From Patellaria atrata CBS 101060 (taxonomy: Eukaryota), in assembly GCA_010093705.1 (NCBI GenBank), contig MU006108.1, positions 148,098 through 184,663 of the forward strand: 36,566 nucleotides of DNA, in the 5' to 3' direction. Both the position numbers and the translations under genes were made by a program. Below are positions 2,539-10,002 of the stretch, in pieces. The notes under the pieces were generated by a model that was given only the letters and a program-made list of their open reading frames with translations, ran no database searches and was not told the origin of the DNA. Numbering within the stretch: the first letter of the stretch is position 1; the number at the start of each line of letters is the position of its first letter.

Positions 2539-2916
2539 ACTACTTTGCTTCTAGAACTACTGAGCCACATCCAAGTTTACTTGTAGCCGAAGATACTTTT
2601 TAAGAGATACTTTTTAAGAGATGGTTCCTTGGAAAACTTCAAAGCGGCTTCGAATTGTAATTTCTACAGTGCGCTGCGAACGGGCTTTCACAGGCTGCTC
2701 GGGACCCGCGACAAATAAAGTGTTGATTTGCAACATACATATGCACCCCCAGTTGTGCAGGATGGGCTGGAGCAGCAGAAGAGCTTGACCAGCAATTCAG
2801 CAACTTATCACTCCCTAATACATTATTTATCAACAATAATAACAACTTCACACCAGAAAGTTTGTAGATGATAACACTGCTATGGGATGTCAAGCGCGTG
2901 ACGACAGAGTTTAGAG

Positions 2917-3075
2917 ATGTTGATGATGATGATGTTGTTGTTGTTGTTGATGATGATGATGATGATGATGTTGACGATGATGATGATGTTGATGATAATA
3001 ATGATGATGTTGACGATGATATTGGTAATGATGATGATGTTGACGATGATGATGTTGATGATGATGATGATGATT
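2917..3075. repeat. Compound (GAT/GTT/GAC/AAT)n trinucleotide tract
   Basis: ~160 bp of GAT-based triplets; source of the poly-D/M/I/H ORFs. Confidence 0.95.
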
Positions 3076-3708
3076 ACAACAGTATTGCGCAAAGTGGTAC
3101 TCCCGCATCAAAGAAAGCTGGGCAAAGCCTAAAAACAAGCCTTTTCTCAAAAAGATCCAGGATGTTGAGTTGCCCGCGGTCAATAGTCGGGATTCCTTCG
3201 CTGAGCAAGGAGAAAAGGCAGATCTTGGCCACATCGAGCGCCGATAGGCTAAAACAGATGCCAGATGCCAGATGCCAATATCATCACGCGACGCTGTTCC
3301 GTATCGTGGGGTAAAGTGGTAAAGTGGTAAGGTGGTAAAGAGAATTACAATCTGCAACAGTTTTATCTTTCCAGTTACACCACAGGCCGGGACCTTCTTT
3401 TTTCAGATGTCTTCCAACATGTGTACAACTTCCCTAAATATATGCAAAATTGGGGTCGAAGGTGATGAATCAGCAGAACATGAACAACCTATCCAGATTT
3501 GGAAGCCACCCAAAAGATGATTTGCATTTGACCTCCACAACCCTGGGCCTTCCCGTTCAACGCTCGCCAAGCGTCCCTTTGCAAACCAGACCCGACATCA
3601 ATCGGCCAACGTCTCCGTTTCGTTCTCTAAATCTGAAAATCGTGCATCATCTGTTACATTTCCCCGTAATACAGCATTAATCTCAGCGCGCTAACCACAG
3701 ACCCAAAA

Positions 3709-4481
3709 ATGGCCGCTCCAAACGGCAACCCAGTAGTTTTCTTCGACATCACCCTAGGAGGTGAGATCAATCCAACATTGCAACACACGTGACCTTCCCC
3801 TTGCCCTCCCCTTGCCCTCCCCTTTCCCTCCCCATCCCTTCCCCTTCCTCTCCCCTTTCCCTGCTAATAATCATATGGCGGAATAGGGGAGTCCTTGGGT
3901 AGGATAAAGATGGAACTATTCCAGAACACCGTGCCGCGGACCGCCGAAAACTTCCGCAAATTCTGCACCGGCGAGACGAAGAGCTCCCAAGGGCGGCCAC
4001 AAGGCTACAAGGGGAGCAAATTCCACCGGGTGGTTCGTTTTTCCCCGGTTTTTTCGTTGGCTATTTGGCAATGTTTTCGAGTAACACGGCGTGTAGATCA
4101 AGGAGTTCATGATCCAGGGCGGTGACTTTCTGAACGGCGATGGGACTGGATCTATCTCTATCTATGGCACTCGATCGTTTGCGGATGAGAATTTCGACCT
4201 GAAGCATGATACGCCTGGTCTTCTTAGTATGGCCGTGGGTATACCTCGCTGGAGATATGTGTCGGACAACGTTGACTGATGTTGGATAGAATTCTGGGCC
4301 CAACAGCAATGGTAGTCAGTTCTTCATCACGACCGTGCCTACACCTTTCCTGGACAACAAGCACGTTGTCTTTGGAAAGGTGATCGATGGTATGGACGTT
4401 GTGAAGAAGATTGAAAACACGAGGACCATCAAGGATAAGCCGACTCAGGATGTGGTCATCAGTCAGTGTGGCGAAATGTGA
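3709..4481 (+). CDS. CYP3: Cyclophilin PPIase, PPIH/Cyp3 (U4/U6 snRNP) type; exons 3709-3760, 3887-4032, 4097-4234, 4290-4481
   Basis: [74 protein letters not shown], and C-terminal CGEM typical of PPIH. Three GT-AG introns keep frame. Confidence 0.92.
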
Positions 4482-5244
4482 TGGAAGTGCGGTACTAGAA
4501 TCGATCAAATTATCCGATAGGAAGCAACTCATCGTTCTTCTTTGGAAGGTTAGCTTGAGGTGTAATGTCTTCCTCACAGTCTCCCGTTGAGATGGAGCTG
4601 ATAAATAGTCTGGAAGCCGGTCAGGTAAGGTCTTCCGAGGAACAGCAGCATGAACCATGGTTAGGATAGCAGGACTGAGTAGCATATGCCTGGATATCAG
4701 AAGTAGTATCGATTAGACATTCGAGATTGAATGGTGAAGCATGACAATAAAAGCCGTTCAAGTATCTCTTATCTCAAAAGTGCAACACCATGACCGTGGC
4801 CGTTATTGGGCCAACAGGTGTAAATAAGCACATTGCGACTACTTGAAAATGTATTTCCTATGTCTAAAAATCACATCCTAGAGTATCCAAGTCATATCCT
4901 GGCATCCGCAATTCTTAAAAATTACAGTCACGGAAAGTCATATCCAGCATCTACACTCACATCTATATCTACATCATGCACATCCATCGACAGTCATCAT
5001 AACACATCACATCATTTCAAATCATATCTTTGTTCGTGAGATCAGTCTGAGAAGAGAGAAAGAGCTTTGATTACTATGTATAAGATATCAGACGACACGA
5101 TCATGATAATTACAGAAGTAAAGCCAAAAACCTCCAAACCCGAATAACAAGCATGAGAAAAGCCAATAGGGCATAATAGCCATGACTCGGGAAAAGATAA
5201 TAGGCATCCAACATCAACACCACAACGATCGACTTAGCACTTAC

Positions 5245-5967
5245 GTCCGCATACGCCAGACTGGCCGAGCTCATGTCGAAGATGGAGAGATGAGGAGCAA
5301 AAATGATAATCAACAATCTGCTCACGCTCTAGAAGAGATGTTAGTACAGTAGAGAAGATGTGACGAAGCGTTGAACTTACTAAGACCCTGAGGCTAGCGC
5401 ACCACCATCCAACCAACCCATCAACCCCCAACTTCAAAGATCCATCACCGCAAGTCCAGTCGTGGATTGAGATCGTCGTGCTGATCTTGGGCCTTGCCTC
5501 CACAACCGGACTTCCAACCGGACCCCACAAAAGTCTACGAGGGTCAGCAAGAGCAAGGAAGAGTGAGGGATTGTTTGCCTTACGTTTTTTTTTGGGCAAA
5601 AGCCCGCCACCATCCACCACCTGGCCGGGTTGCCACTCTCCCTGACGGTGCCCCCTATGTGAACTTGATAAGAACAAAGAGTCAGTAGAGCTTAAAGATA
5701 AAGCGGGTTTGGTGATGGTAACAAACATCAACTCGTCGTGCGCTGACAAAGATCTTGGGATGTTAGTATGGTTACGATACGATGATGATGTTGAACTCAC
5801 GATTTTTTGAGCAAAAGCCCCGCCACCATCCACCGCCTGGCCGTGTTGCCACTCTCCCTAACGATGCCCCCTATATGAACTGAAAGGAAAGAAAGAGTTA
5901 GTAAAGAACGGTAATGGGATGGGAAGCGGGTAGACTTAGCTCTGGTGATGATTGACAGACAACCTAC
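5245..5967 (-). ncRNA. Multi-exon non-coding segment (spliced 3' UTR of the 6249-6965 ORF, or a lncRNA); introns 5967-5880, 5800-5754, 5726-5664, 5583-5535, 5380-5329, further donor at 5244
   Basis: Donors GTAGGT/GTGAGT/GTTTGT/GTAAGG/GTAAGT; branch points TACTAAC x3, TACTGAC, TGCTGAC; acceptors CAG/AAG/TAG; intron lengths 47-88 nt. Confidence 0.65.
5596..5906. repeat. ~95-bp imperfect direct repeat (5596-5690 and 5811-5906)
   Basis: GCAAAAGCCC..CCACCATCCACC..TTGCCACTCTCCCT..GCCCCCTAT..GAAC present twice, 215 bp apart. Confidence 0.9.
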
Positions 5968-6082
5968 CCGATCCTTCCCTTGACCAAGTATCCGCGTCGA
6001 CGCCAGATCCTTCTCTTGAAAAGCCTTCTTTTAAATGTTGAACCGAGAAAGAAGACCACGTATCAAGAGTCGATCTGGTCGT

Positions 6083-6165
6083 TGGAACCTTCCGCCTTAC
6101 CAGGGGGTTGTTTCGTTGGGTTTTCCTTCCCAGTGTGGAACCTTCCGCCTTGCCAGGGGGTTGTT
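6083..6165. repeat. 30-bp direct repeat TGGAACCTTCCGCCTTRCCAGGGGGTTGTT (6083-6112, 6136-6165)
   Basis: Two copies, one mismatch. Confidence 0.9.
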
Positions 6166-6248
6166 GAAAAGAGGCGTGCTGGAGTTTTCCTTCTCACGGC
6201 AGTCGGAGAGGGAGAGAGAGAGAGCTGTGTGTCAAGGAGCGTCGAAAC

Positions 6249-6965
6249 TCAAGTGAAGTAAACGTCGAATGATAGCCAGGGCTTGAGTTCAATCATCTTT
6301 TCCGCATTATACCGTCCGACGACACCAGCATAGAAATCATGCCCTCGGGCTAACGCTTCCGGCCCGTAGCGGTTTAGTCCTATGATCTTAGCCCAGATAG
6401 GGGTCATATGGAGATTCCACACGGTATTGCGGATAGCCTCGTCAGTACAAGCATAGGCGCGAACAGCTGCTTTTGGAACCGATTCTTGATTTTGCGGGAC
6501 GGATGTACGATCGTAGAAATCACCGGGGATGCAATCTGCGCACGTCTCCAATGGCCTCGGCTCGCGGAAGGGTTCGTCGATATAAGACACATCGACCCAC
6601 CCAACTGACTTGACGGGACCGCGGGCGGAACCATTTTTCCTAAGGATTGGAGGGTGGAGCTCTGCAGGGTCGTCGATATCCATGGGGTCTCCCGCATCCA
6701 TAAGTCCGGCAGGGTCGTCGATATCCATCGGCTCTGGAACATAAGGCTTGATTCTGATCACTTTCAGGAGCTCCAGTTCAAGAGGCTCTGGAGGGGAAGG
6801 GAACGCCAACTTGAAAGTGGACTTGAGTATAGCGAAAACTGACTTGAAAGCGAACTTGAATATAGCCATGATGATTGGCTTTATTACGTCCCAATGGTTA
6901 GAGATGAGGACACTCAGGAAGAAAGAGAGGAGGGTGTAATGGCAATAGATGTTTTCGGCCGGCAT
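6249..6965 (-). CDS. Hypothetical orphan protein, 238 aa (start may be the Met at 6869)
   Basis: Uninterrupted ORF with in-frame internal duplications (33 and 45 nt), a CT-rich leader and a TATA-like TACATAAATA at 7146-7137. No family recognised. Confidence 0.6.
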   Translation of the reverse strand: MPAENIYCHYTLLSFFLSVLISNHWDVIKPIIMAIFKFAFKSVFAILKSTFKLAFPSPPEPLELELLKVIRIKPYVPEPMDIDDPAGLMDAGDPMDIDDPAELHPPILRKNGSARGPVKSVGWVDVSYIDEPFREPRPLETCADCIPGDFYDRTSVPQNQESVPKAAVRAYACTDEAIRNTVWNLHMTPIWAKIIGLNRYGPEALARGHDFYAGVVGRYNAEKMIELKPWLSFDVYFT

Positions 6966-7136
6966 CGTAACGATGGTTAGAGGGATGAGAGATAGAGGTG
7001 TTGATGAGGATGGATGCTAGTAAACGCAAGAATGTGTGTGTAATGTGAGTATAGATTTGTGTGAGTCTGTGAGCAGGAGAAACCAGTATGGTGTAGAGGG
7101 GAAAAGGAAGAGGTGGAAAGGTTGAGGCGGGAGCGG

Positions 7137-7146
7137 TATTTATGTA
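7137..7146 (-). promoter_or_regulatory. TATA-like element upstream of the orphan ORF
   Basis: TACATAAATA followed by pyrimidine-rich sequence on the minus strand. Confidence 0.35.
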
Positions 7147-7409
7147 CAGTGTGAGAGGTGGCACGGAGCAACCACAACAACATAAACATAAACAATGGAT
7201 TGTTTACAGAAGGCGCGAGGCGGGAAAGTGCGTGTGACTATGCGAGAGTTGGGAGGCATCAGGAGCTGTTACGTTGGGTCATGAAGCAGAACGAGCACGT
7301 GAGGTTTTTGGTGAATGTCAGAACTCACATTTTCTGCGGGACATATTACATCGGACCTTCATTCGAGGAGGCGCTTGAACATTCACATCGCATTGAGCAA
7401 CTATGAACT

Positions 7410-10002
7410 CTATCTCTTACTCTTTCGCATCCGCTTGATTCTTTCATACTCATTCTTCTCCCTTCCCTCCTCCCCCTGAATCTCAGCCACGAGTTTCTTA
7501 TACTTAGCCTCATAAGCTTGATCTTTCTCCTTCTTCTCCCTGAGTCTTTCACGAGCTATGAAATTGGCATCTTTACGCAATTCCCGCATAGCTCCTTTTC
7601 GTTCGCGCTTATACTCAGCCTTGAGTTTGCTCGCTTCTGCTCGATCTCGGTCGGGATCGTAGTGTTTGTTGGGATTGAAACCTTCCTCGAATTTAGGAAT
7701 TGAGGTCTTGATGGCGAGCGGGCGATGATGGTGGAGTTCAAGAGGCCGGCGTGCGAGGCGCGACTTGGATATTAGGAGCCGTAACTGGTGAGCATGCTTC
7801 TTCTGGGTTGGTATGGTAGAGAGTAGCTCAAGTGCAGGATTGAAAATCTCAATGAATGCTGATTTCGCAGCCCAAATATTGCTCATCTCTACCAGGTTCT
7901 TGACATGGACATCAAACAAATCAGGACTGATTGTATGGAATTTTATCGATAAGATAGTAAAGCGAACCGCCTCTGGTATGTATCGTTGAGCTAGATTTTG
8001 GTACTTCAAACACAATGCGACCAGGACAGCGCCAGAGGATATCACCTCAGTTGAATCTGGACGTGTCAACCCAAGAAATCTGCCCATTAGTGTGATAGCA
8101 GGTGTTACGACTTGATGAAAGTGATCTGATGTCGGATATATTGTACCAACTGCTGTAAGGATGATCAGGTCTCCGGGCTGGGGGAAGGGTTTGTCGTGAA
8201 GCTGTTCTAGATAAGAGCGGAATGCACGGGCAATTTCGCTCGTATATGTTCTCGAAAGTGAATGTATATGGCGTATCAAGGACTCCATGGTGCATAAATC
8301 GACTTCTGAGCCACTATTACCAAGGTGGTATATGTGGTTAACAAGTACTGTTGAGAAGATAGCAAGTTTATGTTTATTGTCTGCATGCAATTGAGGATGG
8401 TACAATGCTCGAATGCGTTGTACCACTGTAGAGACTTCTCGGGGTGGAACATTTTCAAGTACTTTAAGCAGTTCGGTATGATTCTGTGGACAGGAGTAGA
8501 TGAAAGCGATTTCCGAGGAGTTTGTGTTTTTGGAGTTCAGATTATTAACATATTGATCGATTCGCTGCCCGTTGTCCTCAGAGAATATATCTTGAATAAA
8601 CTCGGCGTCCTCGATATCTTGTATGGGATCTTCCACGGAAGCATCGGATTCCTCCGATGTTCCCTCCGACCACTCGGGGTCGACATCAGTCTCATCGGCG
8701 ATGAGATCTTCTTCTATAATGAAGTCATCTTCGTCGTCTATCCCCAAAGGTCTTAGTCCATGTTGATTGTTGAGAAAACCAAATTCCGCAGCATCGTCGG
8801 GGATGATATCTTCGTCCCCTTGCGCATTTGCTTCATGAGAAGTTTCCGCAGGCTCATCTTCACTCTCATCCTCACCTCTCATCCTACGCAGACGCTTCTC
8901 TTCTAACTCTTTCAACCTGCTAGCTTCCAGTGCAGCTTTCTCCTCTTCTGTTTTCGTCCTCTCTGTCGGTTTTGACTTTTTGTCAAACGCCATTTCCCTA
9001 ACCCTCGTATCATAGTCTTTCTCGTACTGTCCACCGTTCAGTCCCTCTATAAGGGCTGCTCTTTCAGGATTGATCGTTATTTGTCGATTTTCCGATACAG
9101 ATAGTACTACGGGTTTCTCCGGTTTGGGTTGGCCTCTTAGGATCGCGAGCAGATCTGGCATCCCCTTATCAAGTGCTTCCCTTAAATCTTCATCTTCTTC
9201 TTTGGCTTGCTGCCGCTCGTATTTGTGGAACTTCGACTTAGAGATAACTTCCTTCATCACCTCCGCTTTCGTCTTCTTACGCTCGAGTTGATTGTCTTCT
9301 TTGGGGTTGTCCTGAAAATCATCGTCGATAGGGAAACCACGTTTTCTTTTCAAGCTCTTAGTACTCCCATCTTCATCACTGCCCAATATATCACCATTAA
9401 CAGCGTCAAAATCATCGTGAGCATCTACACCAATTTCGAAGGACAGGGTTCGACCCAAGTGAGTCAATTGTTCCCCGCCGTCTCCTTCCTCCAAATCAAA
9501 GAGCGACGCTCCTTTTCTCCTAATTTTCTCCCTTGTAAAACGCTGTAACGCTCTCTCCTCCGGTGTCATTGTTGGATCGTTTTCTCCAATACGTCGGTCA
9601 AGAATACCACCTGCTTTATTTCGTTTATTCATCTCGAGTAGAAGCGTTTTCTTTCGCTATATGGCCATCATATTAGCAACATATCCGCAAAGCAACGGCG
9701 ATACGAAGAGAACGTACCGCTTCCTCCCCCATGCTTTTTGAGACACCTGGCCTCCCAACCATACTCTTTGCTAAGGGGCCAATTGCGAGCTTGTTGCCGA
9801 ATGATTCGAACTTCTGTGGTCTGGAAAGTGACTTGACATCGAAAGGGTTCAAACTGTCCCTAATATTGGAAAGAGCTGCATTTCTCTGTACTCTTTGCTC
9901 CGGAGTTGACCCTTTCTTCTTCTGCTTCTTAGACTTCTGAGGCCCTGTGATACCTTGCTCTCTCAATGACGCCTTCAGGCGTTTTAGTTGGGAAGGTGGC
10001 AT
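7410..10002 (-). CDS. NOP14: Nucleolar protein Nop14 (SSU processome); exons 10002-9718, 9656-7410
   Basis: NPFDVK, GRPGVSK, GGILDRRIGE, LTHLGRTL, KTKAEVMKEVISKSK, DHFHQVVTPA, KRERKGAMRELRKD. GTACGT..GCTAAT..TAG intron in frame. Confidence 0.95.

Follow-up and report, generated by a model that had tools for sequence, protein, structure and literature searches.

An intron-rich, partly duplicated stretch behind the stop codon of an orphan gene in Patellaria atrata

The stretch described in this article belongs to a window of 36,566 nucleotides of the fungus Patellaria atrata CBS 101060 (assembly GCA_010093705.1, contig MU006108.1, positions 148,098 to 184,663), the whole of which was analysed. 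It comprises the roughly 1.2 kb between the stop codon (TGA) of an intronless orphan open reading frame (ORF) and an AT-rich zone facing a cyclophilin gene, and three genes frame it, namely a Nop14-family gene, the orphan ORF and the cyclophilin gene. On the minus strand, which also carries the ORF, it resolves into an array of short exons and short introns, part of which was produced by a tandem duplication and some of which has been incorporated in a public gene model, here called P0001, as protein-coding sequence. The array is interpreted here as the 3' portion of this species-restricted gene's transcription unit, spliced at several introns and not coding for protein, a reading which is adopted tentatively and with somewhat less than even confidence.

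Genes and features of the locus

Positions are those of the window, and intron scores are from a position weight matrix (PWM) of donor, branch point and acceptor, trained on 12 introns located elsewhere in the window and validated by ORF continuity. The training introns themselves score 17.9-25.3 by their own matrix. Coding sequence is abbreviated CDS. The features are listed in the order in which the minus strand is read, followed by the neighbouring genes.

6249..6965, minus strand: orphan ORF, intronless, 238 codons, from ATG 6965 to TGA 6251-6249, coding-like in composition
6096..6312, minus strand: joining intron of P0001, 217 nt, donor GTATAA, no CTRAY branch point, acceptor ...GGTAAG, PWM 3.8
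5968..6248, minus strand: exon 0, from the orphan stop to the first strong donor, with stops in all three frames (read from the sequence)
About 6230-6205, minus strand: CT-rich tract in exon 0 (read from the sequence)
6083-6112 and 6136-6165: two 30-nt direct repeats in exon 0, 97% identical and 53 nt apart (repeat comparison)
5880..5967, minus strand: intron 0, 88 nt, GTAGGT...TACTAAC...CAG, PWM 17.7, used by P0001
5801..5879, minus strand: exon 1, 79 nt, copy A of the duplicated exon, with the first ATG at 5829
5754..5800, minus strand: intron 1, 47 nt, GTGAGT...TACTAAC...AAG, PWM 18.3; its donor at 5800 is used by P0001
5727..5753, minus strand: exon 2, 27 nt, left out by P0001, with weak similarity to the end of exon 0 (5992-5968)
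5664..5726, minus strand: intron 2, 63 nt, weak GTTTGT donor...TACTGAC...AAG, PWM 13.7, a copy of intron 0
5584..5663, minus strand: exon 3, 80 nt, copy B of the duplicated exon, skipped in P0001
5535..5583, minus strand: intron 3, 49 nt, GTAAGG...TGCTGAC...TAG, PWM 17.8; its acceptor is used by P0001
5381..5534, minus strand: exon 4, 154 nt
5329..5380, minus strand: intron 4, 52 nt, GTAAGT...TACTAAC...TAG, PWM 22.1, the top score of the set, used by P0001
5245..5328, minus strand: exon 5, 84 nt, the last coding piece of P0001
5074..5244, minus strand: probable sixth intron, 171 nt, GTAAGT...TCTGAT...TAG, PWM 19.8, with an in-frame TAA (5073-5071) directly after it
4700..5073, minus strand: AT-rich tail, GC 0.365-0.39, opposite the cyclophilin 3' end (composition profile)
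7410-9656, minus strand: Nop14-family gene, a long exon (Pfam)
3871-4481, plus strand: cyclophilin gene, Pfam family Pro_isomerase, with the CDS end at 4481

Exons 1 to 5 and their GT, branch-point and AG signals lie where the initial annotation of this DNA had put them, and the further GTAAGT donor that it named at 5244 was found as well. For this last donor, alternative acceptors occur at 5186 (PWM 14.3) and 5047 (PWM 15.5). From the orphan stop to about 5100 the GC content keeps to 0.45-0.525, beyond which it drops to 0.365-0.39, and the AT-rich tail is likely the 3' end zone of a minus-strand transcript, which would terminate within it.

The orphan ORF is internally repetitive (6664-6735 and 6798-6875, minus strand). 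It holds two 27-nt repeats, 93% identical, with an acidic PMDIDDPA-type motif, and its N-terminal hydrophobic part contains three 33-nt units. Upstream of it, a high-scoring intron candidate occurs at 7238-7328 on the minus strand (GTGAGT ... CATAG, PWM 22.0), some 80 nt beyond position 7410, where the Nop14 exon ends, and roughly 270 nt ahead of the orphan ATG. It may be an intron of the 5' untranslated region (UTR) of the orphan gene, in which case the transcript would start very near or inside the 3' end of the Nop14 gene.

Splice signals and the tandem duplication

Measured by the matrix, four of the five introns of the array (introns 0 to 4) are on par with the introns of the neighbouring genes, and the one with the GTTTGT donor (5726) is weaker. 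The view that the splice signals here are as good as those of nearby genes holds for four introns and not for the fifth. The three TACTAAC branch points reported for the array were confirmed by an exact-motif count; all three are on the minus strand, and the 36.6-kb window contains six on both strands together, the mean for shuffled windows being 2.4. Of 150 dinucleotide shuffles, none produced a same-strand chain of five candidate introns (score of at least 17.5, within 700 nt), and 5 reached a chain of four. Intron signals are confined to one strand, the plus strand being devoid of candidate introns between 4319 and 7751, and the density of about six introns per 1.2 kb is the highest in the window. 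The introns of the array are very probably genuine.

The five introns are not independent of one another, because introns 2 and 3 duplicate introns 0 and 1. A direct repeat of 104 nt pairs 5803-5906 with 5587-5690 and spans a branch point, an acceptor and the entire 80-nt exon. Upstream of it a weaker collinear similarity links 5992-5943 with 5754-5710 (70% identity in 50 columns, E=14, which by itself is not significant), and downstream the similarity between the duplicates continues through the donor and the following intron. In the simplest reading, a single tandem duplication of about 216-238 nt copied a unit formed by the tail of exon 0, intron 0, exon 1 and intron 1, and in this way would have created exon 2, intron 2, exon 3 and intron 3. 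The earlier count of at least five canonical introns was thus right about the signals, which are real, and overstated their independence, since two of the introns stem from one duplication and the GTTTGT donor is weak.

The two copies have diverged unevenly. Exons 1 and 3 are 84% identical (87% by BLAST) and differ by 1 nt in length, whereas identity is 67% between the 3' part of intron 0 and intron 2 and 49% between introns 1 and 3 (Fisher p=5e-5 for the contrast of exon with intron). Despite these diverged intron bodies, both copies retain full sets of donor, branch point and acceptor. When neutral decay was simulated with 20000 copies of each intron, a score of at least 17.8 was held by 13 copies for intron 1 (51% divergence), and a score of at least 13.7 by 706 copies for intron 0 (35% divergence). 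Retention of the splice signals in both copies is the best internal evidence that these introns are, or long were, truly spliced.

The same data bear on a less generous explanation, namely that the exons are non-functional and perhaps unspliced, being either the decaying remnant of a longer gene or a set of splice-like motifs multiplied by duplication and threaded together by gene finders. Once the duplication is discounted only three or four independent signals are left, and chains of at least three candidates are common in shuffled sequence (71 of 150). Single high-scoring intron-like combinations also arise frequently by chance, with 52 in the real window and a mean of 41.6 in shuffled ones, and the searches of protein sets, families and the window yielded no homologue, family or other copy. 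On the other hand, such an origin accords poorly with the preservation of splice signals in both copies while the intron bodies diverged strongly, with the restriction of all signals to one strand in short fungal-type introns of 47-88 nt, and with a GC content that carries on from the ORF through the exons. None of the frames searched resembles a known protein, and evidence for a pseudogene of a known family is accordingly absent. This explanation is regarded as quite unlikely.

Together, exons 2 and 3 add 107 nt to the mature RNA and shift its frame, and the duplicated exons, of 79 and 80 nt, stand in different frames of the fully spliced product, in agreement with what had been observed initially. 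Two other uses of a duplicated exon were considered and rejected. Mutually exclusive tandem exons do not fit 79 and 80 nt, which leave the downstream frame different, nor the signalled 27-nt exon that lies between them. A precursor of repeated peptides was dismissed by eye, the exon copies being read in different frames and a signal peptide being absent. Apart from the local duplicate, the 36.6-kb window contains no further copy of the array sequence, and the conserved exon core gave 0 matches in metagenome contigs.

Introns 1 and 4 (5754-5800 and 5329-5380, minus strand) have common ends that go beyond the consensus: both begin with GTRAGTTCAAC and carry TACTAACATC around the branch point, and the upstream candidate at 7328 likewise begins GTGAGTTC. 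These common ends hint at intron copying and do not reach significance, the similarity of introns 1 and 4 amounting to 69% over 45 nt (E=0.73).

Gain of introns by intragenic tandem duplication and the introner-like elements of Dothideomycetes, both treated in PMC4457414, are comparable in that new introns with full signals appear by copying, and in that this is the fungal class named for P0001. Introner-like elements are marked by many near-identical intron copies in unrelated genes of a genome, and within the 36.6-kb window only two copies were seen, next to each other. In the part of PMC4457414 consulted, tandem duplication accounts for <1% of single intron gains, so that the duplication in the array would represent a rare route of intron gain.

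Coding potential and the public gene model

Among 5.8 billion proteins, the single relative of the orphan ORF is P0001, a protein of 366 aa which its source names hypothetical protein M501DRAFT_988815 of Patellaria atrata CBS 101060. The sequence of P0001 is reproduced letter for letter when 6312-6096, 5967-5880, 5800-5535 and 5380-5329 are removed from the minus strand. The model drops the last 21 codons of the orphan ORF together with its TGA, reads 6095-5968 plus exons 1, 4 and 5 as a C-terminal extension of 149 residues, omits exons 2 and 3, and ends exactly at 5245. Removal of the intron 5244-5074, followed by the in-frame TAA, would probably complete it. The transcript had been described as hidden, a description that does not hold, as the limits of exons 1, 4 and 5 and the donor 5244 already occur in P0001, where these exons are CDS joined to the orphan ORF. 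It has in common with the array the locus, an identical translation and the sites 5967/5880, 5800, 5535, 5380/5329 and 5245, and differs from it by taking the exons as CDS, adding the intron 6312-6096 and leaving out exons 2 and 3. This joining intron is exceptional in its score (PWM 3.8, against 17.9-25.3 for the training introns) and in its length (217 nt, against 47-126 nt for the others), and its weak acceptor lies within the second copy of the 30-nt repeat pair 6083-6112 / 6136-6165. The genome paper (PMC7082219), in the part consulted, names the JGI pipeline as the source of its annotations and has no detail on single loci or RNA for this species. The locus-tag prefix M501DRAFT was not found in the literature.

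For codon and hexamer scores, six long ORFs of the window, with about 4000 codons together, served as the training set, and controls were made by leave-one-out. The 238-codon orphan ORF obtained a codon score of +0.099 and a hexamer score of -0.018, both in the coding range, and the 21 codons that P0001 drops have a codon score of +0.154. The 149-codon extension obtained -0.103 and -0.430. True coding windows of 150 codons average +0.073 for codons (5th percentile -0.081) and -0.141 for hexamers (5th percentile -0.461), and stop-free wrong-frame stretches have means of -0.07 and -0.37, respectively. The extension thus falls under the coding 5th percentile in codon score and just over it in hexamer score, and by both measures it is at the level of the wrong-frame controls. 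When the exons were scored separately, 23 of the 24 combinations of exon and frame had a zero or negative codon score, the exception being exon 2 in frame 0 (+0.09 over 9 codons); the fully spliced frames are negative on the hexamer and synonymous measures. These results bear out the initial impression that the exons look non-coding, the upstream ORF scoring as coding and both the extension and the fully spliced frames as non-coding.

Apart from P0001, no relative of the array was retrieved at the protein level. A phmmer search of 1.84 billion representatives returned only P0001 itself and no homologue of either the orphan ORF or the extension. Pfam assigned no family at E<=0.1 to seven stop-to-stop frames over 5042-6965, nor any to P0001, and the ESM Atlas gave no usable match for the orphan ORF part. 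A single-sequence AlphaFold2 model of P0001 is confident only for the N-terminal helices (1-54), and with a predicted local distance difference test (pLDDT) of <50 at 91-366 it is uninformative on the extension. An unspliced frame of 207 stop-free codons (5234-5857, minus strand) spans exons 1-5 and four introns; its hexamer score is -0.454 and no homologue of it was found. Stop codons are depleted on the minus strand, a hand count giving about 12 among some 420 overlapping trinucleotides, and long open frames are for this reason weak coding evidence here. A pseudogene or transposon remnant, which alignment of the exons to a known protein or transposon would have indicated, was rejected, there being no match to a known protein or repeat in the frames searched (seven frames in Pfam and the 207-codon frame in the homology search, not every frame against large protein sets).

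If P0001 were correct, the exons would encode an extension of 149 residues in a protein of 366 aa, 6312-6096 would be spliced, exons 2 and 3 would be skipped, and the message, with its stop just past the last junction, would escape nonsense-mediated decay (NMD). The model can point to a CDS reproduced exactly with GT-AG introns, to a frame that stays open across four exons, to the strong acceptor at 5074 with an in-frame TAA immediately after it, and to one common frame that is open in both copies of the duplicated exon; its odd shape suggests, moreover, that it may have had transcript support. It also requires that a non-coding-like extension be attached to an ORF that is coding-like by the same codon and hexamer scores, through a joining intron that is the weakest and longest of those compared. 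In addition, it throws away 21 codons with a positive score and passes over two exons whose splice signals have been kept since the duplication, and it has neither homologues nor a Pfam family in the searches mentioned above. A coding role of this kind is considered doubtful.

Two observations concern the surroundings of the array. A low-complexity tract at 2639-3314 would read as Asp/Val runs on the plus strand and as Ser/Thr or His/Gln runs on the minus strand. The second intron of the cyclophilin gene (about 4037-4096, plus strand), as read from the intron list and the Pfam coordinates, has an apparent GTTCGT donor and an AGTAAC-type branch point, which suggests that splicing in this genome can proceed from weak signals.

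Readings of the array

As the untranslated 3' part of the orphan transcript, the array would operate as follows. Translation of the 238-codon ORF would end at TGA 6251-6249, and the RNA would extend another 1.2 kb or so, interrupted by five or six short spliceosomal introns, and end in the AT-rich zone near 5000. Continuation of the transcript past the stop is proposed because GC stays level to about 5100 and drops only below it. The tandem duplication would have inserted two exons and two introns, and their frameshifting 107 nt would be tolerable in a non-coding region. Bearing five or six exon junctions downstream, the TGA-terminated message is a predicted substrate of exon-junction-dependent NMD, which would hold the orphan protein at a low or conditional level. 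The first predicted junction (5968|5879) is 281 nt past the TGA, well over the roughly 50 nt that mark such targets, and four or five others lie behind it, an arrangement of the type that triggers this decay.

Further support for this arrangement comes from the lack of an AT-rich end zone directly after the stop, from P0001 itself, which links the ORF with exons 1, 4 and 5 by the same splice sites, and from the fact that the coding status of the extension hinges on the weak joining intron (PWM 3.8). The closest known counterparts are the mRNAs of filamentous ascomycetes that carry 3'UTR introns and are subject to NMD. In the sections of PMC9801653 consulted, 344 Podospora genes (about 3%) have at least one 3'UTR intron, and NMD acting on such introns is stated to work in Neurospora (citing Zhang & Sachs 2015) and is expected in Podospora. 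The likeness consists of short fungal-type introns placed >50 nt past the stop on the same strand, with an expected sensitivity to NMD; the difference is that five or six introns are predicted here, part of them tandem-duplicated, where the portion of PMC9801653 at hand counts 'at least one'.

Non-coding host genes of small nucleolar RNAs (snoRNAs) are multi-intron and NMD-sensitive. The array resembles them in its many introns, its poorly coding exons and its predicted sensitivity to NMD, and differs in that neither a snoRNA nor any other Rfam match was detected (Rfam 15, searched with both strands of 4400-7200, had 0 matches at E<=1) and in that introns of 47-88 nt leave no room for one. The suggestion that the introns host small RNAs was abandoned for these same reasons.

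The exons could also belong to an independent spliced transcript that starts just past the orphan stop, that is, a multi-exon long non-coding RNA (lncRNA), possibly with a small ORF from ATG 5829, converging on the cyclophilin gene. CT-rich tracts mark fungal start sites, and one such tract follows the stop directly. Behind it the minus strand is free of ATG from 6296 to 5829 (467 nt; locally P about 0.003), the first ATG past the orphan stop being the one at 5829 in exon 1. It had been noted that the spliced frame lacks an early ATG, which is only partly accurate, as ATG 5829 in exon 1 opens a frame of 78 codons ending in exon 4. The identity of 84-87% kept by the 80-nt exon, against 49-67% in the flanking introns, suggests a role at the sequence level, and both exon copies fold into the same two hairpins, in which the stem differences are G-U/G-C exchanges (our own reading, based on two sequences only). 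In a related class, novel intergenic transcripts are often spliced, 968 of 1732 in Podospora having introns according to the part of PMC9801653 consulted, and the array shares with such transcripts and with fungal multi-exon lncRNAs its short exons, its canonical introns and the lack of a conserved ORF and of homologues. It differs from them in adjoining a coding ORF, with which it may be continuous, and in an intron density that is the top of the window.

An independent transcript is regarded as unlikely, and several results speak against it. An ATG-free gap of such size is ordinary in the window at large (at least 419 nt in 230 of 300 shuffles). Fold z-scores for the hairpins are only -1.1, RNA folding of the exons in general gave z-scores of -1.3 to +1.9, none significant, and the Rfam search described above had no match. 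P0001 joins the exons to the ORF, the AT-rich zone that would end an upstream transcript is absent between the stop and exon 1, and the products of the small ORF score as non-coding.

Several points weigh against a non-coding continuation of the orphan transcript. The CT-rich tract and the 467 nt without ATG fit a separate promoter and leader equally well. The shape of P0001, with a weak long intron, two well-signalled exons omitted and a stop that probably comes straight after the last intron, looks transcript-derived rather than ab initio; if it is, at least one isoform would remove the TGA and be translated past it. Exons 0, 1, 4 and 5 can be read through without a stop for 149 codons, and a young coding extension would score as non-coding by composition too. 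The composition test is of modest power, with a standard deviation of 0.095 among coding windows and, at a length of 150 codons, no more than 4 wrong-frame controls free of stops. A codon score limited to synonymous choices does not discriminate in this genome. As for the splice signals, short chains and single strong combinations are frequent in shuffles, as mentioned above, and the chain statistic shrinks because the duplication makes the introns non-independent. With a looser motif, GTRNGB + CTRAY + HAG, the real window does not exceed chance, having 49 occurrences against 64 in shuffled sequence, and chains of four such motifs appeared in 44 of 200 shuffles.

Elements of the coding and non-coding readings may be combined. 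The orphan gene might toggle between two endings: one at its own TGA, followed by NMD, and one in which the weak 217-nt intron is spliced, the TGA is removed, exons 2 and 3 are skipped and, with a stop immediately behind the last junction, a stable message results. The C-terminal extension would then have been born de novo from an intron-rich, recently duplicated 3'UTR, with splicing at weak sites acting as a gate on expression. This proposal is judged improbable. In a related bold suggestion, the 80-nt exon, preserved in two copies while its flanks decayed, may be a functional RNA element.

The kinds of features involved in the non-coding reading, to which we return as the preferred one, are all known, namely 3'UTR introns with NMD, spliced intergenic RNA, over-extended gene models and intron gain by tandem duplication. 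What would be unusual is how many introns follow the stop codon, together with the visible origin of the array. For fungal gene surveys, the C-terminal 149 residues of P0001 are doubtful, and models threaded in this manner inflate the counts and lengths of 'unique' genes. If the preferred reading is true, P. atrata would possess a 3'UTR that is unusually intron-dense for a filamentous fungus and was partly built by a duplication yielding two introns and two exons. The locus would then provide a clean natural test case for exon-junction-dependent NMD on a lineage-restricted gene, as well as for the recruitment of non-coding exons into a coding frame.

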